This document shows positions 2,463 to 51,458 of a DNA stretch of 63,059 nucleotides, piece by piece. The notes under the pieces were generated by a model that did no database searches, was not told where the DNA came from, and saw only the letters and a program-made list of their open reading frames with translations. A program made the position numbers and the translations under genes. The stretch's first letter is position 1, and each line of letters starts with the position of its first letter. Origin of the DNA: Patescibacteria group bacterium UBA1875 (GTDB taxonomy: Bacteria > Patescibacteriota > CPR2 > UBA1875); the NCBI GenBank assembly GCA_002338125.1, contig DDHN01000008.1, forward strand, positions 113,094 through 176,152, given 5' to 3'.

Positions 2463-3953
2463 ATGCAAAATTATGAAACAGTTGTTGGTTTAGAAATCCA
2501 TGCCCATTTAAAAACTGAAAGTAAAATGTTTTGTCGGTGTGCTACTGCGCCAAAAGGTAGAGATTATGAATCGAGCAAAAAAGATGAACCAAATATTCGA
2601 ATTTGCCCAATCTGCACCGGGCAGCCAGGGACTCTGCCAATTGCCAATCGGAAAGCAATAGAGGACACAATCCTACTGGGGTTAGCATTAGGTTCCAGAA
2701 TTCCCGATTCTTTTAATTTTGAACGTAAAAACTATTATTATCCAGATCTGCCGAAGGCTTATCAAATAACTTCTGCTACCAGGCCACCCGTTATCGGTGG
2801 GGGTCTAGAAATAGACGTTAGAGGAAGTCAGAAGTTTATTGAACTTGATCATATTCATCTAGAAGAAGATGCCGGGAAGTTAACTCATCCAAAGGCAGGT
2901 GATTATTCGTTAGTTGATCTTAATAGAGCAGGGACTCCGTTACTTGAAATAATTACAAAACCAGTTCTTTCTTCTGGAATTGAAGCCGCAAGTTTCATGA
3001 GAAACTTACAATCAATTCTCCGATATCTAAATATCTCTGATGCTGATATGGAGAAAGGGCAGATGCGTTGTGATGCTAATATTTCCGTTCGAAAATCTGG
3101 TTCTAAGCAGCTAGGGGCAAAGGTTGAAGTTAAGAATATTAACTCATTTAAAATGGTAGCAGCAGCAATTGATTATGAGTCAAAAAGGCAAGTAGAAGCA
3201 ATAGAAAATGGGGAAAAGATAGAACAACAAACACGAGGCTGGGATTCAAATAAGGGTAAAACCATTGCTCAAAGAACAAAAGAATATGCGAACGATTATC
3301 GTTACTTTCCTGAACCTGATTTGCCTCCATTTGAAATAGGAAAAGGTAAAGCCCTTGATCCGGAAATTATTAATGACCGCCTTCCGGAATTACCGAAGGA
3401 AAAAAGAGTAAGATTCAAATCAGAATATGGTTTAGCGGAAAGCGATGCTCATATTATTTCAGCAAATTTTGATTTAGCAAAATACTTTGAAGATATCATT
3501 CTACATTTGCCAGAGGCAGCTGAAGGTTCAGCTAATGCTCGTCAAGTTGGAAAGATGGTTGCCAACCTTATGATCAATGAAATGCTCGGAAAAATTACTG
3601 GGATTGAAAATATTTATAATTCCAAAGTAACTCCCGAAAATTTTGCTGGGCTTGTTAGTCTTCTAGTTCAGGAAAAAATTACTGGGAAATTAGCTAAGAT
3701 TATACTCGCCAAGATGATTAAAACTGGGAAGTCTGCTTATAATATTGTTAAAGAAGAAGAGATCGAGAAAATAGATGTCAAAAGTCTTGAACAAATAATT
3801 AATGGAGTCATTTCGGGTAACCCTCATGAAGTAGAAAGGTACCGAAATGGAGAAACAAAACTCTTTGGATTCTTTGTGGGCCAAGTTATGAAGGAGAGCA
3901 AAGGTCAGGCAGACCCATCGGCAACCAGTAAGATACTAAGAGAAAAATTATGA
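2463..3953 (+). CDS. gatB: Asp/Glu-tRNA amidotransferase subunit B
   Basis: 496 aa. N-terminal VVGLEIHAHL and a PGTLP region, with a C-terminal YqeY-like tail. TGA stop. Confidence 0.9.
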   Translation: MQNYETVVGLEIHAHLKTESKMFCRCATAPKGRDYESSKKDEPNIRICPICTGQPGTLPIANRKAIEDTILLGLALGSRIPDSFNFERKNYYYPDLPKAYQITSATRPPVIGGGLEIDVRGSQKFIELDHIHLEEDAGKLTHPKAGDYSLVDLNRAGTPLLEIITKPVLSSGIEAASFMRNLQSILRYLNISDADMEKGQMRCDANISVRKSGSKQLGAKVEVKNINSFKMVAAAIDYESKRQVEAIENGEKIEQQTRGWDSNKGKTIAQRTKEYANDYRYFPEPDLPPFEIGKGKALDPEIINDRLPELPKEKRVRFKSEYGLAESDAHIISANFDLAKYFEDIILHLPEAAEGSANARQVGKMVANLMINEMLGKITGIENIYNSKVTPENFAGLVSLLVQEKITGKLAKIILAKMIKTGKSAYNIVKEEEIEKIDVKSLEQIINGVISGNPHEVERYRNGETKLFGFFVGQVMKESKGQADPSATSKILREKL

Positions 3954-10977: not shown

Positions 10978-11006
10978 TTGACTTATATGCAATATTTTGG
11001 TATATT
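10978..11006 (+). promoter_or_regulatory. Sigma70-type promoter of island 1
   Basis: TTGACT (10978-10983), a 17-nt spacer, then TATATT (11001-11006) with an upstream TG (extended -10). Confidence 0.6.
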
Positions 11007-11013
11007 ATAGCGC

Positions 11014-11055
11014 ATCCGCTTCGGTGGATTGAACAATTTTCGACCTGTTAGGTCG
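11014..11055 (+). promoter_or_regulatory. Island 1 5' leader with two short hairpins
   Basis: ATCCGC-UUCG-GTGGAT (11014-11029) and CGACC-TGTTA-GGTCG (11041-11055). An AAGGAG SD lies at 11083-11088. Confidence 0.5.
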
Positions 11056-11093
11056 TTTGAACATTGAAAACATACCTAGTCTAAGGAGATATC

Positions 11094-11306
11094 ATGCGTT
11101 TTGCACTTCTTCCGCTTCTAGCAGCATCGATCATGCTCTTGGTGGGTATTGTCTTGTGTACAGATTGGAGGCCAGTTTCAAGGCTATTCAAGTCTCTGTA
11201 TCAAGACATTACTAATCCTAACCCGCTTTTCCCGGGACCATTCACTCGGTTCACGGGTATCATGCTTGGAACAGACATCGGCGAAGAGTCCAAGAAAGGA
11301 AGGTGA
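11094..11306 (+). CDS. Island 1 ORF-a: 70-aa protein with an N-terminal signal/anchor helix
   Basis: An AAGGAG SD lies 5 nt upstream of the ATG. The N-terminus (MRFALLPLLAASIMLLVGIVLC) is hydrophobic. No family recognised. Confidence 0.55.
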   Translation: MRFALLPLLAASIMLLVGIVLCTDWRPVSRLFKSLYQDITNPNPLFPGPFTRFTGIMLGTDIGEESKKGR

Positions 11307-11382
11307 AGGCGATGTATTTGGGTCCGTAACATTTCCTCATCGTTTGCGACAGAAAGGAAAACAACGATGAGGGAGGGGCAAC

Positions 11383-11652
11383 ATGAAGGGTTCAAGGTTC
11401 GACCATCGGGGTTACGAGATTTATCGCAACCCAGTTCCGGTAGAAATACTGGAAGAGATCGAAGGTAAGTTGACTCCTAGGGAGACAACTGGCTACGAGT
11501 TCGTTGTCTATCATGACGGTCTGCCGCTAGACATCAATGTCACGGCTCTTAATCGTCATCTTGGCCTCAAAGAGGTCAAGGAGTGGATCGATAGGCAGTT
11601 TGCAACACAAGCCGCAGCCGAGACCGACATTGTGTCGGCTCAGTCGAACTAG
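11383..11652 (+). CDS. Island 1 ORF-b: 89-aa soluble hypothetical protein
   Basis: A GAGGGAGGGG SD (11369-11378) precedes the ATG. No family recognised. Confidence 0.55.
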   Translation: MKGSRFDHRGYEIYRNPVPVEILEEIEGKLTPRETTGYEFVVYHDGLPLDINVTALNRHLGLKEVKEWIDRQFATQAAAETDIVSAQSN

Positions 11653-11661
11653 GGGAGGCAG

Positions 11662-12123
11662 ATGATGAAAACGGAAGAGAAGGTCGCATTTCTTGCCGAG
11701 ATGATCGAGGACTTCAATGCCCACGGTTGTCCAGGAAAGGCAGATACCGACAAGGGTCTCCACTATGCAAGGGAGATCATCGACTCGCTCCATCATTGCG
11801 AAAAGCCTGAGGAAGGGGCCGTATATCTCATTACGGCTCTTAGCTTCAAGGCCATTGTCGCGATGGAGGCAGGCTGCCATGCTGATGCGGCAGACTGTCC
11901 TTGTTTCGAAAGCTGCTACGTGTGGACACACGCAGCAGCTGCCAACCCATCCCGATCAATAGTCTCTCTGGTTAGCAAAGGGAGACGCTGCGAGATGGGT
12001 AATGTCGAGTGTTCACTGAACCTCGACAACCCTGGCCGAAGGCATCGTGAGAGCGAATCGCTTCTGGATGTTGATAAGGCCATGGCCGAGAGCTATGTTC
12101 CCGAATCCGGGGCGGCGTGGTAG
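11662..12123 (+). CDS. Island 1 ORF-c: 153-aa Cys/His-rich hypothetical protein
   Basis: A GGGGAGG SD (11652-11658) overlaps the ORF-b stop. It has 8 Cys, including HGC, HHC, GCH and DCPCFESC. Confidence 0.6.
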   Translation: MMKTEEKVAFLAEMIEDFNAHGCPGKADTDKGLHYAREIIDSLHHCEKPEEGAVYLITALSFKAIVAMEAGCHADAADCPCFESCYVWTHAAAANPSRSIVSLVSKGRRCEMGNVECSLNLDNPGRRHRESESLLDVDKAMAESYVPESGAAW

Positions 12124-12125
12124 CG

Positions 12126-12359
12126 ATGAACATAGAAATCATCGCCATGTGTATGGGTCGTGAGGGAACGGTTCTGCACGAGCCGTACACAGCAGCGAAT
12201 GTTGCTGCTGGTATCGTCCGTTCCGGTGGACGTGTCCTCGGAGTCGTCAAGTCAAACGTCGAAGGGGAGCCGATATTCCGGAAAACGGTAGAAATCGGTT
12301 CACCAGAAGAGATCAAGGAGTTCATTCTCGCTTTCTCAGGAGCTGAGGAGGGGGCATGA
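12126..12359 (+). CDS. Island 1 ORF-d: 77-aa hypothetical protein
   Basis: The ATG lies 2 nt after the ORF-c stop (an alternative GTG is at 12117). The stop overlaps the ORF-e start (ATGA). Confidence 0.5.
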   Translation: MNIEIIAMCMGREGTVLHEPYTAANVAAGIVRSGGRVLGVVKSNVEGEPIFRKTVEIGSPEEIKEFILAFSGAEEGA

Positions 12360-12565
12360 AGTGGTTCTGGGGTATCGTCTCCTTGGCAGTAATAACCTTA
12401 ATCGGTTTCGCTGCTGTTTGGGACCCAACCATTAGAGAGGCCGTAAGCGTTATTGCCTACTTGGCAATGGTTGCTGGCTTCTGGTGGATGGGGGTGAAAT
12501 TTGTTGGTCTTTGCGACGAAGTGAAGGCTAACAGTTTCGCAGCTTTCCATCGTGACAAGGACTAG
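12356..12565 (+). CDS. Island 1 ORF-e: 69-aa two-TM membrane protein
   Basis: A GAGGAGGGGG SD lies immediately upstream. There are two hydrophobic helices (FWGIVSLAVITLIGFAAVW and AVSVIAYLAMVAGFWWMGVKFVGL). Confidence 0.6.
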   Translation: MKWFWGIVSLAVITLIGFAAVWDPTIREAVSVIAYLAMVAGFWWMGVKFVGLCDEVKANSFAAFHRDKD

Positions 12566-12820
12566 GTGTTATCAGGCTCTGTTTCATACAGAGACAGCAC
12601 CTACTAGCAGATTGACTTCCGGGTAATACCTGGAGGCCGGATGCAGAGGGGGTTTTAGAGTTGTGAGCCCCTGCATCCGGCCGGTACTGGTCGTGCCAAC
12701 CCGTTCTCACAACGGGTACGACACTAAGGTACCGGTCGGTCTCCGAGTTAAAAACTCGGTCTGCGTCTAGGGATGACAGTTTTGCTTTGCGCGGCAAGGC
12801 TGTTATCCCTGATCATTCTA
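12566..12820 (+). ncRNA. Hairpin-dense non-coding 3' region of island 1 (candidate structured RNA)
   Basis: Six consecutive stable helices: 12577-12593, 12616-12636, 12636-12681, 12681-12735 (three stacked segments), 12743-12759 and 12769-12810. There is no plausible ORF with an SD. Confidence 0.45.
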
Positions 12821-12856
12821 CGGGCCCCAGTCTTCGGACGGGGCCCGTTCACTTTT
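12821..12856 (+). terminator. Island 1 rho-independent terminator
   Basis: CGGGCCCC-A-GTC-UUCG-GAC-GGGGCCCG (11-bp stem, UUCG loop) followed by TTCACTTTT. Confidence 0.75.
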
Positions 12857-12862
12857 AAAATA

Positions 12863-12891
12863 TTGACGAAAGTTTGTTTTTTTGATAATAT
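12863..12891 (+). promoter_or_regulatory. rplS promoter
   Basis: TTGACG, a 17-nt spacer, then TAATAT. The ATG is only about 12 nt downstream of the -10 and has no SD. Confidence 0.5.
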
Positions 12892-12903: not shown

Positions 12904-13626
12904 ATGAATACGCAATTATTAGAAAAAATAGAAAAAAGCCAGCTCAAGAAAGTTCCGGAAGTTCGTCCCGGTGATCTTGTTCGTGTTCATCAAAAGATTA
13001 AAGAAGGCAAAAAAGAAAGAATTCAGATATTTGAAGGAGTCGTTTTAAGGGTTAGGGGCGGTGGTCTTAGAAAATCTTTTATAGTAAGAAAGATATCCTT
13101 TGGTATTGGGGTTGAAAAGAGTTTCCTAATGCATGCTCCTAATATTATTAAAGTTGAAATCAAGAAAAGAGCGAAGGTCAGAAGGGCCTATTTGACTTAC
13201 CTTAGAAGACTGACGGGGAAAAAGGCTCGTCTTAAAGATGAACAATTTGATTCTTTGGTAGTAAATGTAGAGCCAGAGCCAATCGAAACTGATAAAGAAT
13301 CCGAAAAGGGAGAAAAAACCTCTGATAGTGAGATTGCTGAAATCGATCCAGCAAAAACAGCTAATGTGGAAGTAGTTGAAGTCCCTTTATCGGAAGTAGA
13401 AAAAGAAGAGATAAAACAAGCAGAAGCTGAAGATGAGACAAAAGAAGGTCTAGATGAAGATGATCATCAAAAAATCGAGATTGAAGAAGTAGAAAAAGGT
13501 ATCGAAGAGGCCGAAAAAGATCTAGAAAAAGGCAAGACTAAAAAAACCGATCAAGCCGAAAAAGAAAAAGAAGACATTTCCCAAGAAGAAATTAAAGAAG
13601 AAATAAAAGAAGAAAAAGAGGCTTAA
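12904..13626 (+). CDS. rplS: Ribosomal protein L19 with a long acidic C-terminal extension
   Basis: L19 core (RPGDLVRVHQKIKEGKKERIQIFEGVVL...), followed by about 125 Glu/Lys-rich residues. Confidence 0.9.
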   Translation: MNTQLLEKIEKSQLKKVPEVRPGDLVRVHQKIKEGKKERIQIFEGVVLRVRGGGLRKSFIVRKISFGIGVEKSFLMHAPNIIKVEIKKRAKVRRAYLTYLRRLTGKKARLKDEQFDSLVVNVEPEPIETDKESEKGEKTSDSEIAEIDPAKTANVEVVEVPLSEVEKEEIKQAEAEDETKEGLDEDDHQKIEIEEVEKGIEEAEKDLEKGKTKKTDQAEKEKEDISQEEIKEEIKEEKEA

Positions 13627-13628
13627 TA

Positions 13629-13654
13629 AAAGAACCGCAAGAAGCGGTTCTTTT
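13629..13654 (+). terminator. Terminator after rplS
   Basis: AGAACCGC-AAGAA-GCGGTTCT hairpin followed by TTTT. It is fused to TGATATAAT. Confidence 0.65.
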
Positions 13655-13668
13655 GATATAATCAAAAG

Positions 13669-14262
13669 ATGTTAAAACCTCATCTTGTATACGAGAAAAA
13701 AAATTGGCAAGTCGGGAAGATTGTTTGTGGGCTTGATGAGGTGGGTCGTGGTTGTGTAGCTGGTCCGGTTGTCGCTGCGGCTGTTGTGTTTGCGGAAGGG
13801 CATAACCCGCATAAAGATATTAGGGATTCTAAAACTCTTTCTGCAAAGAAAAGAGAAGAGCTTTTTGAATATATTCTTGTTGAGGCTTTTGATTATGGCA
13901 TTGGACTTGTCCCAGCAAGCGTAGTCGATAGTATTGGTATTAATGATTCTTGTAAAAAAGCAATGCATCTTGCGGTAAAAATGTTGAAAATAAAACCAGA
14001 TTGTTTGCTAATTGATGCAATCTCCTTACAATCAAAAATTCCTCAAATTTCTCTAATAAAAGGAGACACGATTTGCTACTCTATTTCGGCTGCTTCTATT
14101 GTTGCTAAAGTCTTTCGAGATAGAATTGTTGCCGGTCTTGATAATAGATATCCAGAATATGGTTTTTCAAGCCATAAAGGGTATGGTACAGCCAAGCATT
14201 TTGAAGCTATTAAAAAATATGGCTATACAAATGAACATCGCCAAACTTTTTTAAAAAAATGA
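13669..14262 (+). CDS. rnhB: Ribonuclease HII
   Basis: GLDEVGRGCVAGPVVAAAVV active-site region. 197 aa. Confidence 0.9.
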   Translation: MLKPHLVYEKKNWQVGKIVCGLDEVGRGCVAGPVVAAAVVFAEGHNPHKDIRDSKTLSAKKREELFEYILVEAFDYGIGLVPASVVDSIGINDSCKKAMHLAVKMLKIKPDCLLIDAISLQSKIPQISLIKGDTICYSISAASIVAKVFRDRIVAGLDNRYPEYGFSSHKGYGTAKHFEAIKKYGYTNEHRQTFLKK

Positions 14263-26167: not shown

Positions 26168-28222
26168 ATGTCTTTGACGCTATTATCAAATGTTTCTGAG
26201 ATACCGGGGGTTGGAGATTTCTATGCTAAAAAGCTAGCTAAACTAGAAATAAAAACTACTCGTGATTTATTATTATACTTTCCGCGCCGTTGGGAGGATT
26301 ATTCGAAAATAACCAATATCGCAGCTGTTAAGTCTGGAGAACAAGTTTCGGTAAGAGGGAAAGTGGTTGATATTATTACCAAAAGAAGTCGAAGAGGGAT
26401 AACGGTAACTGAAATAATTATTGCTGATAATACAGGGAGTGCTAAAGCTGTATGGTTTAATCAACCATTTATTGAAAACACTATTCGCAAGGGAGAAGAA
26501 ATATATTTAGCTGGCAAGATGGAATGGGGCTTTGGGCAATTGAATTTTGTTTCTCCGGCTTATGAAAAAGTAAAAGAAGCCGAAGATGAACTCCGACATA
26601 CGGGTCGGATTGTTCCGATCTATCCTGAAACTGCTGGATTAAGTTCAAAATGGATTCGTCAAAAAGTTGGGTTGCTAACTAAAATTATCTATAATTTAAA
26701 AGATCATTTACCTGAAGTGATAAAGAAAAAACATGATTTGTTGGAGCTTTCAGCAGCGGTTCGGACAATCCATTTTCCGGAGAATATGGAAGAGTTAAAA
26801 AGAGCTCAAAAAAGGTTTTTGTATGATGATCTTTTTTGCCTCCTTTTATCTGTTCTATCAAACAAAAAAGAGATTGAAGGTAGTAGAGCCGTTTCTGTCA
26901 AATATGATGAAAAAATAGGAAAAAAATTTGTTGAGGATCTCCCGTTTGATTTAACCGACTCTCAGCGGAAAGCCGCTTGGGAAATTTTAAAGGATCTTAG
27001 TAAAAATACACCAATGAATCGACTCCTTGAAGGAGACGTCGGTAGTGGCAAAACAGTAGTTTGTGCCATGGCCGCTTTAATGGTTGGTAATGCCGGTTAT
27101 CAAACAGCACTTCTTGCTCCGACTGAAATCTTGGCTCGCCAGCATTATGAAAGTTTTAAAAAAATGCTACCAGAGAATATTAAGATAGTCTTATTAACAG
27201 GTTCGATAAAAGAAAAAGAAAAAAAGGAAATCTTATCTGAGATAGAGAATGGCGAAGCCCAAATTGTAATTGGGACACATGCAATTTTTTCAGAAAATGT
27301 TAATTTTTGGACTTTGGCTTTTGTAATTGTTGATGAACAACATCGTTTTGGGGTAGAACAGAGAAGAAAACTCAAAATAGCAAATGGGGAAGCAGGAATT
27401 ATGCCTCACTTTCTCTCAATGAGTGCTACTCCAATTCCGAGGACACTAGCGATTACGGTTTTCGGAGATTTATCTCTCTCTGTTTTAACTGATATGCCGC
27501 CAGGAAGAGAGAAGGTAGATACCTATGTCGTGCCACCATACAAGCGGGAAGACGGGTATGGATTTATCGAAAGAAAGATTAAAGAGGGTCGACAAATTTT
27601 TGTAATTTGTCCGTTAATTTCAGCCTCTGATAAATTAGGGGTTAAGTCAGCTGAGGAAGAGGCTAAAAATCTTGCAGTTATTTATCCAAAAAGAAAAATA
27701 GGCTTATTACACGGTAAGTTAAAGTCTGAGGATAAGGAGAAAGTAATGAATAGCTTTAAAAAGGGAGAGATTGATATTTTGGTTTCCACTTCCGTAGTTG
27801 AAGTAGGGGTTGACGTCCCTAATGCTTCGGTGATGGTTATCGAAGGAGCGGAAAGGTTTGGCTTGGCTCAACTCCATCAATTCCGGGGGCGAGTGGGGCG
27901 GGGAAGGCATAAATCATATTGTTTTCTATTCACCGAATCAAAACTTGGGAAGACTCTTGAGAGATTAAATGCTCTCGTTAATTTAAATAGTGGTTTTGAT
28001 CTTGCCGAAAAAGACCTCGAAATTAGAGGGCCAGGGGAATTACTTGGAATAAAACAATCGGGGAAGATAGACCAAACAATGGTTAAAGTTTTATCAGATC
28101 CGAGGATTATAAAAGAGGTAAAAGAAAGTGCCGAGAATTTTTTAAATAATAACAACCTTAATGATTATCCTAGACTCTTAGAGAAAGTAGCTGAATTCGA
28201 GATGGCGGCTAGATTGGAATAA
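26168..28222 (+). CDS. recG: ATP-dependent DNA helicase RecG
   Basis: Wedge/OB N-terminal domain and helicase motifs DVGSGKT, DEQHRFG and QLHQFRGRVGRG. Confidence 0.9.
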   Translation: MSLTLLSNVSEIPGVGDFYAKKLAKLEIKTTRDLLLYFPRRWEDYSKITNIAAVKSGEQVSVRGKVVDIITKRSRRGITVTEIIIADNTGSAKAVWFNQPFIENTIRKGEEIYLAGKMEWGFGQLNFVSPAYEKVKEAEDELRHTGRIVPIYPETAGLSSKWIRQKVGLLTKIIYNLKDHLPEVIKKKHDLLELSAAVRTIHFPENMEELKRAQKRFLYDDLFCLLLSVLSNKKEIEGSRAVSVKYDEKIGKKFVEDLPFDLTDSQRKAAWEILKDLSKNTPMNRLLEGDVGSGKTVVCAMAALMVGNAGYQTALLAPTEILARQHYESFKKMLPENIKIVLLTGSIKEKEKKEILSEIENGEAQIVIGTHAIFSENVNFWTLAFVIVDEQHRFGVEQRRKLKIANGEAGIMPHFLSMSATPIPRTLAITVFGDLSLSVLTDMPPGREKVDTYVVPPYKREDGYGFIERKIKEGRQIFVICPLISASDKLGVKSAEEEAKNLAVIYPKRKIGLLHGKLKSEDKEKVMNSFKKGEIDILVSTSVVEVGVDVPNASVMVIEGAERFGLAQLHQFRGRVGRGRHKSYCFLFTESKLGKTLERLNALVNLNSGFDLAEKDLEIRGPGELLGIKQSGKIDQTMVKVLSDPRIIKEVKESAENFLNNNNLNDYPRLLEKVAEFEMAARLE

Positions 28223-28227
28223 TATTA

Positions 28228-28256
28228 TTGACAAAAATTAAATTTATGATATTATA
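28228..28256 (+). promoter_or_regulatory. Sigma70-type promoter of island 2
   Basis: TTGACA (28228-28233), then TGaTATTAT (-10 at 28250-28255), starting 6 nt after the recG stop. Confidence 0.6.
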
Positions 28257-28265
28257 GCGATATTA

Positions 28266-28302
28266 TCCGGTGCTAATACCGGAAGTCTCGATTGTGGTCG
28301 AG
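28266..28302 (+). promoter_or_regulatory. Island 2 5' leader with two short hairpins
   Basis: TCCGGT-GCTAAT-ACCGGA (28266-28283) and CTCGA-TTGTGG-TCGAG (28287-28302). An AAGGAAG SD lies at 28311-28317. Confidence 0.5.
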
Positions 28303-28325
28303 TTGACATTAAGGAAGTGATTTGA

Positions 28326-29258
28326 GTGTCTAGTGAGGGCAACGTCTTTGTTGTACGTCTCGACTTCCAGCTCAGCCCTTCGATCGACTTGTTCGATCTT
28401 GAAGACGGAGAAGGAAGGGTCTTCCTGAATCATGCCCCTGAGGTCATTAAAGAGAAGGGAGAATTTGTCCTCGTGCAATCAGAGGGACAATTTGGTTTCT
28501 CCCTTATCCCAGCTGCACCGATGAAAGCTGGGTACAAGAGGGTTGATTCCATCAAGAAGCTTGTGGAGTTGGTGCTTGAGTTTGGGCTGTGTAAGCCCTT
28601 CGTCCCGCGTGGCTACCATGGAATTGTCGAAAAGGGTTTGAGCGATCAGCTCCATAAGGCCTACAACGAGTGCCGATTCGGTTCCTACGTCAAGCTTCCT
28701 GATTCAAGTGTGGTGTTGGTGGTCAGCGATGAAGCTCTTGACCCAGGAACGTTTGTTGAGGCTCGGCGAGCCTGGAACAACGTTCTCGTTGTTGGGCGAG
28801 CTGAGTTCGAGAGCCGGCAACCATTCCGACACGAGAACTGGGCTAGCTTTGTAAGCGCTCTGATGGCTAGCTACCCTCAGCAAGTCAAAGGGCACTTGAC
28901 TCCTCGTAAGCCGCCAAGGAGGATTCAGGGAACTTGGGCCGGTCCCGACCTCGACTACATTAACCGTCGGGGGCAAGCCTCAACTCGTTTGCTTGTTGAC
29001 GGACAAGAAGAAGGGTCTGTCGTTACCGTGTATTTCACGCGTTGCGACAAAAACCCTTCCGTTCCGATCAGAACTGGTGAGGCTGTTGAGGTTTGGTATG
29101 CCGGTAAAGGTAACATTGCGGTTATCCCTTACGCTGGCCGAACCACTCAAGTCCTGCGACCAAGAGAGCTAGTCAGAGAGCTGGGAGTGCAAAGAGACAG
29201 TCTCGATGAGAGAAAACTCTCATCATACGACAACGTTCGCGTGGTCTACACTTCCTGA
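28326..29258 (+). CDS. Island 2 ORF: 310-aa soluble hypothetical protein
   Basis: The GTG start lies 8 nt downstream of AAGGAAG. There is no TM helix or signal peptide. The protein is beta-rich and Arg-rich, and no family is recognised. Confidence 0.65.
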   Translation: MSSEGNVFVVRLDFQLSPSIDLFDLEDGEGRVFLNHAPEVIKEKGEFVLVQSEGQFGFSLIPAAPMKAGYKRVDSIKKLVELVLEFGLCKPFVPRGYHGIVEKGLSDQLHKAYNECRFGSYVKLPDSSVVLVVSDEALDPGTFVEARRAWNNVLVVGRAEFESRQPFRHENWASFVSALMASYPQQVKGHLTPRKPPRRIQGTWAGPDLDYINRRGQASTRLLVDGQEEGSVVTVYFTRCDKNPSVPIRTGEAVEVWYAGKGNIAVIPYAGRTTQVLRPRELVRELGVQRDSLDERKLSSYDNVRVVYTS

Positions 29259-29271
29259 AGTAGTCCCTTGT

Positions 29272-29300
29272 AACGGGCGCCTATCGAGGCGCCCGTTTTC
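29272..29300 (+). terminator. Island 2 rho-independent terminator
   Basis: AACGGGCGCC-TATCGA-GGCGCCCGTT followed by TTC and a T-rich tract. Confidence 0.75.
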
Positions 29301-29339
29301 AATCTTCATTCTTTTATAATTTAAGCATATAATTAAACT

Positions 29340-29885
29340 ATGCATATCGGAACAGGACAATTTGAAGGCAAGAAGATAAAAGATTCTCATGATGGCATCC
29401 CACTGTCAACTCGGACTTTAACTATTAAGGAATCAATATTTGAAATAATCGGAATTAGAATTCAGGAATCGGCTGTGCTTGATATCAACGACCGGAATGG
29501 AATGTATGGGATAGAGGCTATTTCCAAAGGAGCGGCCGTAGTTCAGTTTCTGAATATTCATAATGAAGAGAAGAATATAATTAAAGAAAATTTAAAAATG
29601 GTTGAACTTAATCCAGCTGACTTTGTGATTAATGAAAAACCGGAAAAATTTTTTTCAAAGAAAACTGATTTCAGATTTGATGTAATATTTTTCAGGGCTG
29701 TCGATAATCATTGTCTTTTGTTACTCGATAGAGTATTAGCAATGCAAACATCAAATGGCATAACTGTACTTTTCTACCCTCAAAACAAAGAATGCCAGTT
29801 TACCGGAGCCCCTGATGGCTACCAGGTGATTGATACTAGGGATGTTGAGACGGAAAGGGTAGTTGTATTACTTAAAGAAAAATAA
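29340..29885 (+). CDS. RsmD-like methyltransferase fold protein with degenerate catalytic motifs
   Basis: It is colinear with RsmD (GQFEGKKIK...TRTLTIKESIFEII...GIEAISKGAA...FDVIFF). However, FAGSG is replaced by NDRNG and DPPF by FRAV. Confidence 0.6.
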   Translation: MHIGTGQFEGKKIKDSHDGIPLSTRTLTIKESIFEIIGIRIQESAVLDINDRNGMYGIEAISKGAAVVQFLNIHNEEKNIIKENLKMVELNPADFVINEKPEKFFSKKTDFRFDVIFFRAVDNHCLLLLDRVLAMQTSNGITVLFYPQNKECQFTGAPDGYQVIDTRDVETERVVVLLKEK

Positions 29886-42933: not shown

Positions 42934-42976
42934 ATTGATAACGTTAATACGAGAAACTTGAAGGCAGGTGAGGAAG

Positions 42977-43129
42977 ATGCTTTCGAGAACAAGAGAAAGA
43001 GTAGCAAACATTATCGCATGCTCTTTGCTCTCGCTCTTTTTCCTCATCCTTAAACAATTAGTTCTGTCAGCTGTTACCGGCTTGATTGTCTTTTGTGATA
43101 GCTTTTCAAAGCCAACGTGGAAGGAGTGA
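42977..43129 (+). CDS. Island 3 ORF-a: 50-aa hydrophobic peptide (absent from the ORF track)
   Basis: GGTGAGGAAG SD. MLSRTRERVANIIACSLLSLFFLILKQLVLSAVTGLIVFCDSFSKPTWKE, with 1-2 TM segments. Confidence 0.5.
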   Translation: MLSRTRERVANIIACSLLSLFFLILKQLVLSAVTGLIVFCDSFSKPTWKE

Positions 43130-43131
43130 TT

Positions 43132-43278
43132 ATGGGTCTCCAAATGCTTGGTATTATTCTAATGATTGTCTTTATGGCTATCGTGGGTGGTTTGTTGACA
43201 AGAGTCTACGTCAAACGCCTTGATGAACAGGCCGCAATGTACCTCGATCATGAGGACCAGATCATCTCTGAGCTTTGA
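43132..43278 (+). CDS. Island 3 ORF-b: 48-aa single-TM peptide (absent from the ORF track)
   Basis: The AAGGAG SD overlaps the ORF-a stop and the ATG lies 2 nt after that stop. MGLQMLGIILMIVFMAIVGGLL is followed by an acidic tail. Confidence 0.5.
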   Translation: MGLQMLGIILMIVFMAIVGGLLTRVYVKRLDEQAAMYLDHEDQIISEL

Positions 43279-43290
43279 GGGGGGAGTGTG

Positions 43291-43611
43291 ATGACCAGAA
43301 AGAAAGCTGACAGGCTGTGCGCTAAAGGCTTGGCAGCTGACCCAGACTATTGCTTGTATGATGAAGGAAGTGTCTGCCCGTGTGAACGGTACTACCAGAA
43401 ACTGACAAGGCCTTCGCTTGGTCGATTACTTCTTTCAACTATTACGTTGCAAAAGGATGAAACCGCGTCGTGTGTTGGTTGTTTGACGGAATCTCAGACA
43501 GCGTGTCCGTCATGTGTCAACAGTTCGGCTCACGAACGGTTGCTGGCAGCCTGTCCCCCGATCCGAGGAGGTTCTGCCGATGAAGGAATTCATTGCTTCG
43601 GGTGGCGGTAG
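43291..43611 (+). CDS. Island 3 ORF-c: 106-aa Cys-rich protein
   Basis: A GAGGGGGGAG SD precedes ATG 43291 (a GTG lies at 43288). It has 10 Cys, including VCPC, CVGC and CPSC. Confidence 0.6.
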   Translation: MTRKKADRLCAKGLAADPDYCLYDEGSVCPCERYYQKLTRPSLGRLLLSTITLQKDETASCVGCLTESQTACPSCVNSSAHERLLAACPPIRGGSADEGIHCFGWR

Positions 43612-43693
43612 CTACCTTCTTGTTGGTATCACGGTCCTTGTTTGTCTGACTGGTGGGGCGATTCATTACAATCGAATTCGTCCTCGGCGCTAA
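43580..43693 (+). CDS. Island 3 ORF-d: 37-aa single-TM peptide (absent from the ORF track)
   Basis: GAGGAGG SD at 43565-43571. It overlaps the ORF-c end by 32 nt. MKEFIASGGGSYLLVGITVLVCLTGGAIHYNRIRPRR. Confidence 0.45.
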   Translation: MKEFIASGGGSYLLVGITVLVCLTGGAIHYNRIRPRR

Positions 43694-43734
43694 TTGTCAA
43701 AGGAGGAGAGAGTGGCCTGTGTAGCACCTTAGTT

Positions 43735-43776
43735 GGCCCCGGTTACAATATTGTAATCCGGGGCCTTCTTTATATT
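43735..43776 (+). terminator. Island 3 rho-independent terminator
   Basis: GGCCCCGG-TTACAA..TTGTAA-(T)-CCGGGGCC extended hairpin followed by TTCTTTATATT. Confidence 0.75.
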
Positions 43777-45127: not shown

Positions 45128-45451
45128 ATGTCAGAAGAAAAAGATACAAAACAACGAATCAGAATCAAGCTACGTGCTTACGACCACAAAGTTCTCGATG
45201 AATCTGTTAAGCAGATTATTGATACTGCTAATCGTTCAGGTGCAAAGGTGGCTGGTCCGATCCCGTTACCAACGGATCGTTCTCCAATAACCGTTTTAAA
45301 ATCTACTAATCAACATAAAAATGCTCGTGAGCAATTTGAGATTAGGGTTCATAAACGATTAATAGATATCTTGGAGCCAAATGCTAAGACAGTTGACTCG
45401 CTAATGAACATTTCTCTTCCAGCCGGTGTTGATATCGAGATAAAGATGTAA
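45128..45451 (+). CDS. rpsJ: Ribosomal protein S10
   Basis: Conserved S10 sequence ([14 protein letters not shown]...). Confidence 0.95.
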
Positions 45452-45458
45452 GATGATC

Positions 45459-45498
45459 GATATATGAAAAAGCCCCTTCGGGGGCTTTTTCATATATC
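45459..45498 (+). terminator. Perfect 18-bp palindromic terminator with a UUCG loop after rpsJ
   Basis: GATATATGAAAAAGCCCC-TTCG-GGGGCTTTTTCATATATC. The A-run and T-run arms make it potentially bidirectional. Confidence 0.8.
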
Positions 45499-45576
45499 CT
45501 TTTTTGTCATATAATATAGTGAGTTTATAATTAAAATTGTCATAATGGGGGGACAATTTACACTGTAAAAGCGAAT

Positions 45577-50650: not shown

Positions 50651-50861
50651 TGATATAGTTGCTAAAAAAGATCAGGATCTTGAAAAAAAGTTAGCTGAGC
50701 TAGGTGAACAATTAACAAAATCAAGATTCCAAATTGCTACCAAGGAATCAGACAAAACAGCTGAAATAAAAAAGATAAAAACCGATATTGCTAGAATAAA
50801 AACTATTTTACGAGAAAGAGAAATTTTAAGAGAGGAAGAAAAAGATGAAAAGAAGGCTTAA
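50640..50861 (+). CDS. rpmC: Ribosomal protein L29
   Basis: ATG 50640 follows a GGAGAG SD. The sequence is an L29-like helical protein. Confidence 0.85.
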
Positions 50862-51090
50862 AGGAAGAGTTATATCTAAAAGCGGGACAAATACCGTTTC
50901 TGTTATGATAGATAAAAGCAAGGTTCATCCTCTGTATAAAAAGCGTTATGTTAATTCAAAGAAGTTTTTGGCCCATGATGAATCTGGGGTAGTGGTCGGA
51001 GATTTAGTAACTATCGAAGAAACAAAACCAATTTCTAAGAAAAAGAAATGGATAGTTATTAAGAATCCAACCAAAGGAGAAAGTAAGTAA
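50845..51090 (+). CDS. rpsQ: Ribosomal protein S17
   Basis: [16 protein letters not shown]...HPLYKK signature. Confidence 0.9.
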
Positions 51091-51458
51091 TGATACAGGC
51101 ACAGACAAAATTAAAAGTGGCTGACAATACCGGAGCCAAGGAAATAATGTGTATTAAGGTTCTGGGTGGTTCCCGAAGACGTTATGCCGGAGTGGGTGAT
51201 ATTATCGTTGCCTCAGTTAAAATTGCAACACCTAATGGTCAAGCTAAAAAGAAAGAGGTTGTCCGAGCCGTGGTGGTGAGAACACGTAAAGAGATAAAAA
51301 GAAAGGATGGATCTACTGTAAGATTTGATGATAATGCTGCCGTCCTTGTAAATGGTGAAGGAATCCCAAGAGGAACACGTATCTTTGGCCCAGTAGCCCG
51401 GGAGATAAGAGATAGAGGCTATACAAAGATTCTTTCCCAAGCCCCGGAGGTACTCTAA
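51090..51458 (+). CDS. rplN: Ribosomal protein L14
   Basis: [17 protein letters not shown] signature. Confidence 0.95.

Follow-up and report, generated by a model that had tools for sequence, protein, structure and literature searches.

A GC-rich cassette lodged between recG and rsmD in a Patescibacteria (CPR) genome is old in its slot and patchy among relatives, and its high G+C content, synonymous sites included, has persisted through synonymous turnover. The cassette is the second of three GC-rich islands in the window, by which we mean the whole 63,059-nucleotide stretch of DNA from Patescibacteria group bacterium UBA1875 that was analyzed. On balance, we think that island 2 is a genuine accessory gene with a self-sufficient expression unit to itself. 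We read it as a moron-like cassette that is old, patchy in its distribution, and fast-evolving, and that keeps its GC-richness in place through RNA-level selection and not as a residue of transfer. The evidence leans toward this reading as a whole, without settling it.

Anatomy of the cassette

Island 2 is laid out as a complete transcription unit. All features described here lie on the forward (+) strand. The left edge of the slot is the AT-rich host gene recG (26168..28222; GC 0.377; Pfam RecG_wedge, DEAD, Helicase_C, and RecG_dom3_C), and the right edge is the host gene for an rsmD-like methyltransferase (29340..29885; Pfam Cons_hypoth95). Other host neighbors at the locus are trx, tig, clpP, and rpoBC. 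Just past the recG stop, a strong sigma-70-type promoter (28228..28255) comprises TTGACA (28228-28233), a 16-nt spacer, TATTAT (28250-28255), and an extended −10 TG (28247-28248), with a score of 11/12; in the region, four promoter-type sites are seen against 1.5 expected. Leader hairpin 1 (28266..28283) lies near the predicted 5′ end of the transcript, and hairpin 2 (28287..28302) is followed by a conserved TTGACATT. A Shine-Dalgarno motif, AAGGAAG (28311..28317), read from the sequence, sits 8 nt upstream of the GTG start of a 310-amino-acid CDS (28326..29258; GC 0.524, GC3 0.547). The unit closes with an intrinsic terminator (29272..29301), whose hairpin (29272-29297) has a perfect 11-bp G+C stem and a 4-nt loop ahead of a short T run (−22.7 kcal/mol, z = −6.3). 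A simple scan overlooks this terminator because the T-tract is short. The sequence-only reading had proposed every one of these elements, from the promoter past the recG stop to the GC-stem terminator, and all are confirmed.

The promoter-to-terminator layout is common to every relative with readable flanks. Promoters of the TTGACA...TATTAT/TATAAT type are found in the equivalent place at related loci L001, L002/L006, L003, L007, L008, L009, L010, L016, and L017, and equivalent terminators are found at L003, L006, L007, L010, L016, and L017. In the orthologs, GGGAAG is aligned with the Shine-Dalgarno motif, and the start codon at the aligned position is ATG or GTG. Both leader hairpins fold as had been described, and each has six pairs that are 100% paired in four orthologs, preserved by compensatory changes (two in hairpin 1 and four in hairpin 2). 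Covariation is real for both hairpins and for the terminator. This supports the view of the cassette as a self-contained, compositionally alien accessory transcription unit. Furthermore, it is not an assembly artifact, since the identical gene occurs on six independently assembled contigs and orthologs occupy the same slot.

A protein of three predicted barrel modules

The ORF evolves as a protein-coding gene. Between orthologs, dN/dS is about 0.10 (dN = 0.166 and dS = 1.6 for L001 versus L002), and changes are concentrated at third codon positions (0.50, versus 0.12-0.21 at positions 1 and 2). The frame is intact in 10 divergent members, and mean column identity among four orthologs is 73%.

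The product is predicted to be a soluble protein of about 300 amino acids, composed of three homologous beta-barrel-plus-helix modules. An AF2 model built from 10 sequences reached a pLDDT of 85.8; an earlier model from four sequences was discarded in its favor because, at a pLDDT of 48.6, it was unusable. In the AF2 secondary structure, module D1 (aa 1-95; 28326..28610) is a beta-barrel with a C-terminal helix, and D2 (aa 96-186; 28611..28883) is likewise a barrel plus helix. The basic linker TPRKPPRR leads into D3 (aa 187-310; together 28884..29255), which is itself basic (pI 9.8) and, according to Foldseek, NfeD-C/OB-like. Sequence comparison with hhalign relates the modules to one another as an internal triplication (D1 versus D2, probability 94.8%, E = 5e-8; D2 versus D3, 75%, E = 2.5e-5). 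The protein contains no transmembrane segment.

Sequence families yield nothing for this protein, which bears out the earlier statement that it holds no recognizable motif. Searches with single proteins, a 10-sequence profile, and a 27-sequence repeat-unit profile gave no match in Pfam, NCBIfam, PHROGs, PADLOC, or PDB sequences. No OB-family profile in Pfam, NCBIfam, or the PDB-sequence set matched either, the repeat-unit profile included. For the NfeD C-terminal OB domain (PF01957), a single family member (P0006) matches, at 13.5 bits against a Pfam cut-off of 29.1. The structural comparison proposed with the sequence-only reading gave a confident three-barrel model, but weak matches: the best Foldseek matches are tandem-OB proteins (E = 6e-4, TM at most 0.21), the sole recurrent theme among them, and 8z5g_AA aligns with D3 over 68 columns at an rmsd of 3.7.

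The predicted row of small beta-barrels, with its weak structural matches, invites comparison with tandem OB-fold proteins such as HIN-200 p204/IFI16, CST/RPA-like proteins, baculovirus LEF-3, phage SSBs, and the NfeD C-terminal OB domain. In contrast to these, the island-2 protein has no sequence-profile match and low TM-scores, and is mostly acidic. Its modules end in a helix, whereas the canonical OB helix lies between strands 3 and 4. Unlike NfeD, it has no membrane domain and no SPFH/stomatin partner, no SPFH neighbor being present at any locus. Nucleic-acid binding had been listed earlier as one possible role, and a binding role, possibly of nucleic acid, is compatible with the predicted array of three OB-like barrels. 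The model could, more tentatively, point to a tandem-OB scaffold capable of multivalent binding, with nucleic acid or protein as the partner. Many aromatic and basic residues are conserved. Nucleic-acid binding by the island-2 protein would be only a guess, because the protein is mostly acidic (pI 5-6.5).

A very rare family with a patchy distribution

The cassette encodes a member of a protein family that is very rare and had not been described before. An exhaustive search of 1.84 billion representative proteins returned 10 matches, one of them spurious, and thus about nine credible clusters; four clusters were found among 5.8 billion proteins. The spurious match (P0008) is a 1591-aa repeat protein, MucBP/Big_2-like, whose similarity is driven by its repeats. 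The gene had been called an orphan. It does lack any known family, but the label is not strictly correct because this very small family exists. The result is a new family, annotated nowhere and defined by its three predicted tandem barrel modules.

All members with readable context share one setting. Each is a GC-rich gene with its own promoter and terminator in AT-rich, Patescibacteria-like DNA, and all are chromosomal and lie beside AT-rich housekeeping genes. Among about 15 billion proteins searched, no member lies in a GC-rich genome, and searches of IMG/VR, INPHARED phages, PLSDB plasmids, and metagenomes gave no homolog. PHROGs, IMG/VR, and INPHARED gave no match that would indicate residence in a phage. 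Neither an integrase or transposase nor an att site or direct repeat is seen at the cassette. An integron cassette was considered and rejected: each of these cassettes brings a promoter of its own, and neither an integrase nor anything like attC was seen.

In two other species (L001 and L002/L006), orthologs likewise stand between recG and rsmD; there, flank proteins are 73-75% identical to those of the window, recG is 74% identical, and the ORF is 54-56% identical. Whether recG directly precedes the rsmD-like gene in relatives, a question raised by the sequence-only reading, has a mixed answer. It does so in the close relatives L018 and L020, which lack the cassette and have a gap of about 300 nt between the two genes, but not in L001 and L006. 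The empty sites in L018 and L020 show no scar and no flanking repeats. Few taxa underlie the argument for vertical inheritance.

In other lineages, the cassette occupies a second slot, after murT-gatD. At L010, L016, and L017, gatD is 74-77% identical, versus only 28-32% for the ORFs, while the L010 ORF is 44-47% identical to those of the window clade. The cassette evolves much faster than its neighbors. Because the gene tree is at odds with the tree of the flanking gatD, either replacement by transfer among Patescibacteria occurs or rates are extremely uneven. This patchy, fast-diverging, allele-replacing evolution suggests, more weakly than our other conclusions, a role in conflict or host interaction, not in core metabolism.

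Composition, codon usage, and mRNA folding

The GC content of the island-2 ORF is 0.52-0.565, compared with 0.33-0.39 in the flanks; over the whole ORF it is 0.524, against 0.35-0.38 for neighboring genes, and the GC3 of the window ORF is 0.55, versus about 0.30. Across 10 loci, GC3 is 0.55-0.88 in the ORF and 0.26-0.44 in the flanks. The GC-rich boundary coincides exactly with the transcription unit boundary, and the promoters themselves are AT-rich and host-like. GC1 and GC2 are also shifted in the ORF, and amino-acid content is therefore shifted with them. GC-biased gene conversion and local mutation bias are alternative causes able to raise GC3. The codon index of the ORF is 0.506, against 0.684 ± 0.024 for host genes, and this anti-adapted usage argues against simple “high expression”.

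The composition is also persistent. Among orthologs in the recG slot, GC3 is 0.55-0.63, versus 0.27-0.41 in the flanks, even though dS between L001 and L006/L002 has reached about 1.6 in the ORF and 1.8 in recG. Atypical composition is routinely interpreted as recent horizontal transfer. Here, an entire family holds its GC3 of 0.55-0.88 in genomes of GC3 about 0.3-0.4 while synonymous sites turn over. Thus, composition does not date the gene but is a property that the gene maintains.

The transcript is folded much more stably than host mRNAs. The mRNA folds at −0.38 kcal/mol per nt, versus about −0.22 to −0.26 in host genes, and dinucleotide shuffling gives z = −8.1 and −4.6. The folding analysis also covered the islands and 24 random control windows. 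When codons are permuted, five homologs have z-scores of −10.3, −10.2, −5.3, −5.1, and −4.2, with host genes at −0.6 to −2.6; scores near −10 belong to L001 and L006, and scores of about −5 to L008 and L010. The window ORF itself reaches only −2.4 to −3.0, which overlaps the host controls.

No particular fold inside the CDS appears to be under selection, because its base pairs are not conserved between orthologs beyond controls. When MFE pairs of one ortholog were projected onto the others, conservation did not exceed that of slid controls or recG, and a conserved fold was therefore rejected. RNAalifold reported 52 “compensatory” pairs in the CDS, above both controls, for a structure optimized on the same four sequences. 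The alignment-shuffle z is only moderately stronger for the ORF than for recG (−3.4 versus −1.7). In Rfam, tRNAs were the only matches in the window and five related loci. In 8-10 of 10 members, TTA, ATA, and TAA are scarcer than codon usage alone would make them; this is just a mild general depletion, and toxin-motif avoidance was rejected as its explanation.

Taken together, these observations suggest that the composition is kept by selection at the RNA level, with a stable, structured mRNA as the likeliest cause of the GC-richness. We propose that the cassette would yield a long-lived, RNase-resistant transcript. The 5′ hairpins could protect it from 5′-end-dependent decay, its GC-rich, generically structured body may expose few AU-rich single-stranded cleavage sites, and the 3′ hairpin would stop exonucleases.

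Alternative origins of the GC-rich composition

Patchy presence, two alternative chromosomal slots, and an ORF tree incongruent with that of gatD would also follow from repeated re-delivery by an unsampled GC-rich Patescibacteria mobile element, phage, or plasmid, each copy being young and its G+C that of the donor. Promoter, leader, and ORF appear to move as one: L010 and the window have homologous leaders despite the different slot, with hairpin 1 conserved in L010 too, and other GC-rich cassettes with unrelated cargo repeat the same design. We nevertheless regard re-delivery as unlikely. Searches of IMG/VR, INPHARED phages, and PLSDB plasmids turned up no homolog, all copies with readable context are chromosomal with AT-rich housekeeping flanks and host-like promoters, and neither mobility genes and repeats nor scars at empty sites mark the locus. 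Furthermore, the L001/L006 ORF diverges in step with recG, and its GC3 is still near 0.6.

Less probable still is that the GC-richness is a neutral by-product in an ordinary lineage-specific gene, either through GC-biased gene conversion at a hotspot or through a transcription-linked repair bias. Exchange at these loci does imply recombination, particular CDS base pairs are unconserved, and the structure excess of the window ORF over codon permutation is marginal. However, the strong permutation scores of L001, L006, L008, and L010 reveal a non-random arrangement of synonymous codons that mere composition bias would not produce. The match between GC boundary and transcription unit, the shift of GC1, GC2, and amino-acid content, and the covarying leader hairpins and terminator likewise speak against this explanation.

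The sequence-only reading took island 2 for a foreign gene. An alien composition and an accessory character stand, but recent acquisition does not. Import from a GC-rich organism, too recent for amelioration, would account for atypical composition and codon usage in a rare family that some relatives lack. It is largely refuted, and we consider it very improbable, because same-slot orthologs occur where recG is only 74% identical, synonymous sites are saturated, GC3 is retained, and all members sit in AT-rich DNA. A rough two-state decay calculation, which takes about 0.8 synonymous substitutions per site in each lineage after L001 and L006 separated, predicts that most of any initial GC3 excess should have been erased. 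Finally, a large structured non-coding RNA with an incidental 310-codon ORF, although suggested by a strongly folded GC-rich island in an AT-rich genome, is refuted by the low dN/dS with predominant third-position changes, the intact frame in divergent members, the confident AF2 fold with internal repeats, and the absence of an Rfam family match or conserved pairing within the CDS.

Comparison with known systems

The cassette that we favor, maintained by RNA-level selection, has partial counterparts elsewhere. Phage “morons” (PMC3594210, “The moron comes of age”) are accessory genes of (pro)phage genomes that form independent transcription units. Like them, island 2 consists of one accessory gene that brings a promoter and a terminator of its own. 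It also shares with them a composition unlike that of its neighbors, a patchy distribution, signs of exchange, and insertion between two conserved genes that are adjacent in relatives (L018 and L020). Unlike them, it is flanked by cellular housekeeping genes (recG and rsmD; murT-gatD), has no phage homologs, and has kept one slot through speciation, with a deviant composition that is long-stable and bears no trace of a recent donor.

In the model of Lawrence and Ochman, islets and ORFans gained by horizontal transfer are said to ameliorate afterwards. Island 2 resembles such genes in its atypical composition and codon usage, its lineage restriction, and its presence or absence among relatives. 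It differs in being unameliorated despite saturated synonymous divergence, in the GC-rich-in-AT-rich state of the whole family, and in having no candidate donor, mobility genes, or repeats. Klein, Misulovin, and Eddy reportedly showed in 2002 that GC-rich islands mark structured RNA genes in AT-rich genomes of (hyper)thermophiles. Island 2 fits that pattern in being sharply bounded and GC-rich within an AT-rich genome, with a transcript far more stably folded than its surroundings, but it is protein-coding, under purifying selection, and without a specific conserved fold in its CDS.

The leaders of E. coli ompA and of B. subtilis aprE and ermC are 5′-terminal stem-loops that stabilize mRNA. 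The island-2 hairpins are similarly conserved and covarying, a few nucleotides from the predicted transcript start and ahead of the ribosome-binding site. They differ in that the start site is only predicted and the half-life effect only proposed, and their intrinsic stability is unremarkable (z = −1.3).

Other GC-rich islands

Further GC-rich cassettes of the same design carry unrelated cargo, with extra islands at L006, L010, and L020. It is possible, though doubtful, that this clade of Patescibacteria has a class of “hardened” expression cassettes for lineage-specific genes, in which selection at synonymous sites keeps transcripts GC-rich and densely folded and each unit comes with a strong promoter, 5′ hairpins, and a terminator to itself. 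One cargo would then be the triple-barrel protein of island 2; others would be carried by islands 1 and 3 and by the additional islands at L006, L010, and L020. Such mRNAs might outlast or evade decay of the AU-rich bulk transcriptome, during dormancy, during RNA shut-off induced by toxins or phages, or even while being exported to a host cell. If so, a gene-specific compositional equilibrium would be maintained as a regulatory device. If RNA-level selection is causal, CPR bacteria with reduced genomes would use transcript “hardening” as a cheap form of post-transcriptional control, and simply looking for genes that are outliers in GC3 and have a promoter and terminator to themselves would reveal their least-understood accessory genes.

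Within the window, island 2 had been described as the most deviant of the three islands, which is wrong: in island 1, GC is 0.54 and the codon index is lower. No homology was found between the cargo proteins of one island and those of another (tblastn with proteins and blastn with island DNA). Co-regulation of islands 1 and 2 through a shared leader, also suggested earlier, is unsupported. R1, a covariance model built from the leader, recognizes the island-2 orthologs at 83-99 bits and matches these only, not island 1, and the shared TATTATAGCG is also present at an ordinary host promoter (2392). The common ground of the two islands is only their general design, a promoter plus two hairpins.

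Anatomy of the cassette downstream of recG

Island 2, the GC-rich single-gene cassette between recG and an rsmD-like gene, is an intact transcription unit. The window (GC = 0.386) is a low-GC Patescibacteria/CPR chromosome stretch carrying dnaE, rplS, tyrS, recG, trx, tig, clpP, rpoBC, fusA, tuf, and ribosomal-protein operons; its RecG has "Patescibacteria group bacterium" MAGs as nearest named relatives. GC reaches at least 0.50 in three segments: 11451-12850, 28451-29300, and 43201-43750. At island 2, it rises from ~0.33 to 0.52-0.565, and the increase coincides exactly with the transcription unit. Following the end of recG at 28222 are a promoter starting at 28228 (TTGACA-16-TATTAT with an extended -10 TG, score 11/12), two leader hairpins identified by folding (28266-28283 and 28287-28302), an AAGGAAG motif (28311-28317) 8 nt upstream of the GTG start, an ORF of 310 codons (28326-29258), and a terminator with an 11-bp perfect GC stem (29272-29297; -22.7 kcal/mol, z = -6.3). 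The rsmD-like gene starts at 29340.

Every anatomical element described in the sequence-only reading is therefore present. Independent assemblies yielded six contigs, up to 454,755 nt long, that carry identical copies of the gene; thus, island 2 is not an assembly chimera, the artefact that would have undone that reading. Its interpretation, a foreign gene co-regulated with island 1 through a shared leader, is only partly supported.

A rare protein family with a predicted triple-barrel fold

The island 2 gene represents a new, unannotated protein family that is tiny and rare. Searching 5.8 billion proteins by word index recovered only four clusters, and scanning 1.84 billion representatives exhaustively with an HMM gave ten matches, one of them a spurious repeat protein. 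No family member had a match in Pfam, NCBIfam, PHROGs, PADLOC, or PDB sequences. Between the orthologs at loci L001 and L002, dN is 0.166 against a dS of ~1.6, and differences prevail at the third codon position (0.21/0.12/0.50 at positions 1/2/3), which shows that the reading frame is under purifying selection. A noncoding RNA reading of island 2 is essentially excluded.

AlphaFold2, run with an alignment of ten family members, predicted three units in series (D1, D2, and D3), each of 5-6 strands followed by a helix (pLDDT 85.8, pTM 0.60). Profile-profile comparison, accompanied by a joint alignment, indicates that the three modules are homologous to one another (D1 vs D2: probability 94.8%, E = 5e-8; D2 vs D3: 75%, E = 2.5e-5). 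Foldseek found no convincing full-length match to the model. Tandem OB-fold proteins were a recurring theme among its weak matches (TM-scores ≤0.21), which included the HIN domains of p204 and IFI16 (E = 6e-4), CST, Unr cold-shock domains, LEF-3, phage SSBs, and, over 68 residues, the NfeD OB domain. The predicted protein is thus safely described as three small OB-like barrels, with no assignment to any OB family. Most family members are mildly acidic. In the distant member P0012 (L008, 277-1167), the N-terminal profile module matched two separate stretches, suggesting another module arrangement with D1 duplicated.

An old, patchily retained accessory gene

Orthologs occupy the same slot in L001 (JGI 3300035312) and L002/L006 (Patescibacteria bacterium UBA7522), in the gene order tyrS-recG-[ORF]-rsmD-trx-tig-clpP-rpoB. 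Flanking proteins at these loci are 73-75% identical to those of the window and the ORFs 54-56%. The L001-L006 pair is more similar than either is to the window: recG is 83% identical and the ORF 76%, at comparable dS values (1.8 and 1.6, respectively). This fits co-inheritance predating the split of these species.

Two other relatives, L018 and L020, lack the cassette; there, recG is followed by ~300 AT-rich nt and rsmD, with no scar. The L018 recG is 74% identical to that of the window and 80% to those of L001 and L006, while the L020 recG is 65% identical to that of the window. The empty spacers (L018 12059-12369; L020 12065-12357) have in common a conserved hairpin, ACGCTTTT..AAAAGCGTAGCAAAA, that is missing where the cassette is present and is probably the recG terminator.

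Distant members P0005, P0007, and P0010 all lie downstream of murT-gatD, where gatD is 74-77% identical among genomes and the ORFs only 28-32%. The L010 ORF shares 44-47% identity with the ORFs of the window clade, and the L010 leader is a homolog of the one in the window. Together with the synteny and the empty sites, this shows that the cassette is an old, lineage-restricted accessory gene, patchily retained. It can switch slot as a promoter-leader-ORF unit, and it is either very fast-evolving or exchanged among lineages.

Persistence of an alien composition

The whole family of self-contained cassettes keeps its alien composition long-term, which was a surprise. Across ten loci with readable context, ORF GC is 0.52-0.63 and GC3 0.55-0.875, compared with a GC3 of 0.26-0.44 in flanking genes; L017 is the most extreme (0.875 vs ~0.33). 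The codon index of the window ORF is 0.506, 7 SD from that of 45 host genes (0.684 ± 0.024), and genes of islands 1 and 3 deviate in the same way. The window and its orthologs have reached saturation at synonymous sites, and L001 and L006 differ by a dS of ~1.6, so that, by a rough two-state estimate, inherited donor composition should be mostly decayed. We infer that selection maintains the composition.

Repeated delivery from an unsampled GC-rich element would also renew the composition and is a minority possibility; protein, viral, metagenome, and plasmid searches turned up no family member in any phage, plasmid, or GC-rich genome. A local GC bias of neutral origin (e.g., gBGC) is rather improbable as the source of an increase that follows the transcription unit. 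Recent horizontal transfer, the sense in which "foreign" would mean a recent arrival, is the least probable of these three and not the best reading, since synonymous sites are saturated and yet GC3 remains high in all ten loci.

Folding of the transcript

The island 2 mRNA has high folding stability (ORF: -357.9 kcal/mol, or -0.38 per nt, vs about -0.22 to -0.26 in host genes), and the size of the excess depends on the control. Against dinucleotide shuffles, the window ORF has z = -8.1 (20 shuffles) or -4.6 (30 shuffles); against synonymous-codon permutations, z is -2.4 to -3.0, and host genes range from -0.6 to -2.6, with one recG segment at ~0. Thus, for the window ORF, the excess beyond composition is marginal by the codon-permutation control. 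Codon-permutation z-scores in the homologs are -10.3 (L001), -10.2 (L002/L006), -5.3 (L008), -5.1 (L010), -4.2 (L003), -3.2 (L016), -2.5 (L009), -2.2 (L017), and -1.3 (L007). Scored over 300 nt at a time, island 2 always has a negative z (-1.5 to -2.8) and island 1 falls to -6.9, compared with a mean of -0.37 ± 1.09 in 24 random control windows. Two of these controls, in the ribosomal-protein region (45250-45549 and 50854-51153), gave z = -3.3 and -3.0; they had no Rfam match at the gathering threshold and could be autoregulatory r-protein operon leaders.

The transcript shows generic "hardening" with no specific RNA fold. When the MFE pairs of one ortholog's CDS were projected onto others, retention was no higher than in slid controls or recG; a conserved CDS fold suggested by RNAalifold covariation was rejected as an optimisation artefact on this test. 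Alignment-fold z-scores are noisy with three sequences, as recG alignment columns 841-1080 (window ~27008-27247) reach -6.5 vs column shuffles, as strong as any segment of the island 2 CDS. Genuine covariation is found in the leader hairpins and terminator. Most or all family members also show a mild shortage of the AU-rich trinucleotides TTA, ATA, and TAA beyond what codon usage explains.

On balance, we favor, with modest confidence, a moron-like autonomous accessory expression unit within a cellular chromosome. Selection would keep its transcript GC-rich and folded, most plausibly for RNase resistance and a longer mRNA life; the product would be a binding protein of three OB-like barrels, and its evolutionary pattern may point to conflict or host interaction. 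Among known systems, phage morons (PMC3594210) come closest: the cassette shows four of the five defining features tested and differs in lacking the phage context.

Leader comparison and other GC-rich islands

The leader that island 2 was proposed to share with island 1 did not hold up. A covariance model built from four orthologous island 2 leaders, on which it scores 83-99 bits, found no match in island 1 (10990-11093) even with its filters disabled and an E cutoff of 10. The 10-mer TATTATAGCG common to both islands is also found, at 2392, upstream of an ordinary AT-rich host gene and is not conserved in island 2 orthologs. The islands have a common design (promoter, two hairpins, then TTGA(A)CATT) and, as judged from these comparisons, no demonstrable homologous regulatory element in common.

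The lasting alien composition appears to extend to other islands of the window and of related genomes. Island 1 (10990-12870), between dnaE and rplS, has its own promoter, two leader hairpins, and five small ORFs (70, 89, 153, 80, and 69 aa) with no family match; on visual inspection, two appear to span the membrane, and one is rich in Cys. The strongest folding in the window is that of its 300-nt segments. The ORF-free 3' tail (12570-12860, ~300 nt) has dense hairpins (z = -6.9 for 12500-12799) and matches no Rfam family; it may represent a structured RNA not yet described or a complex terminator. Island 3 (42960-43760), between fusA and tuf, carries small apparently membrane-spanning ORFs and a Cys-rich 107-aa ORF (43288-43611), with a codon index (0.553) deviant like that of island 2 and a slight RNA structure excess (z about -0.2 to -1.4).

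In UBA7522, a further GC-rich cassette just upstream of recG (L006, 1-860) encodes a protein of 110 aa to which nothing in the window is related; there are two copies of the promoter-leader string CTATAATCGCGGAATTCAATCGGA, close to positions 127 and 333. L010 has a second GC-rich cassette (12050-12620), equipped with a promoter, a leader hairpin, and a terminator of its own and encoding 138 aa (GC3 0.65); it adjoins a tRNA and lies ~1.2 kb downstream of the island 2 homolog, and the proteins are unrelated. In L020, a ~700-nt stretch between a tRNA and trx (13060-13800, GC 0.54), with no ORF >84 aa and no Rfam match, could be an unknown RNA or what is left of a decayed cassette, and another GC-rich islet (2600-3200) surrounds a 70-aa gene.
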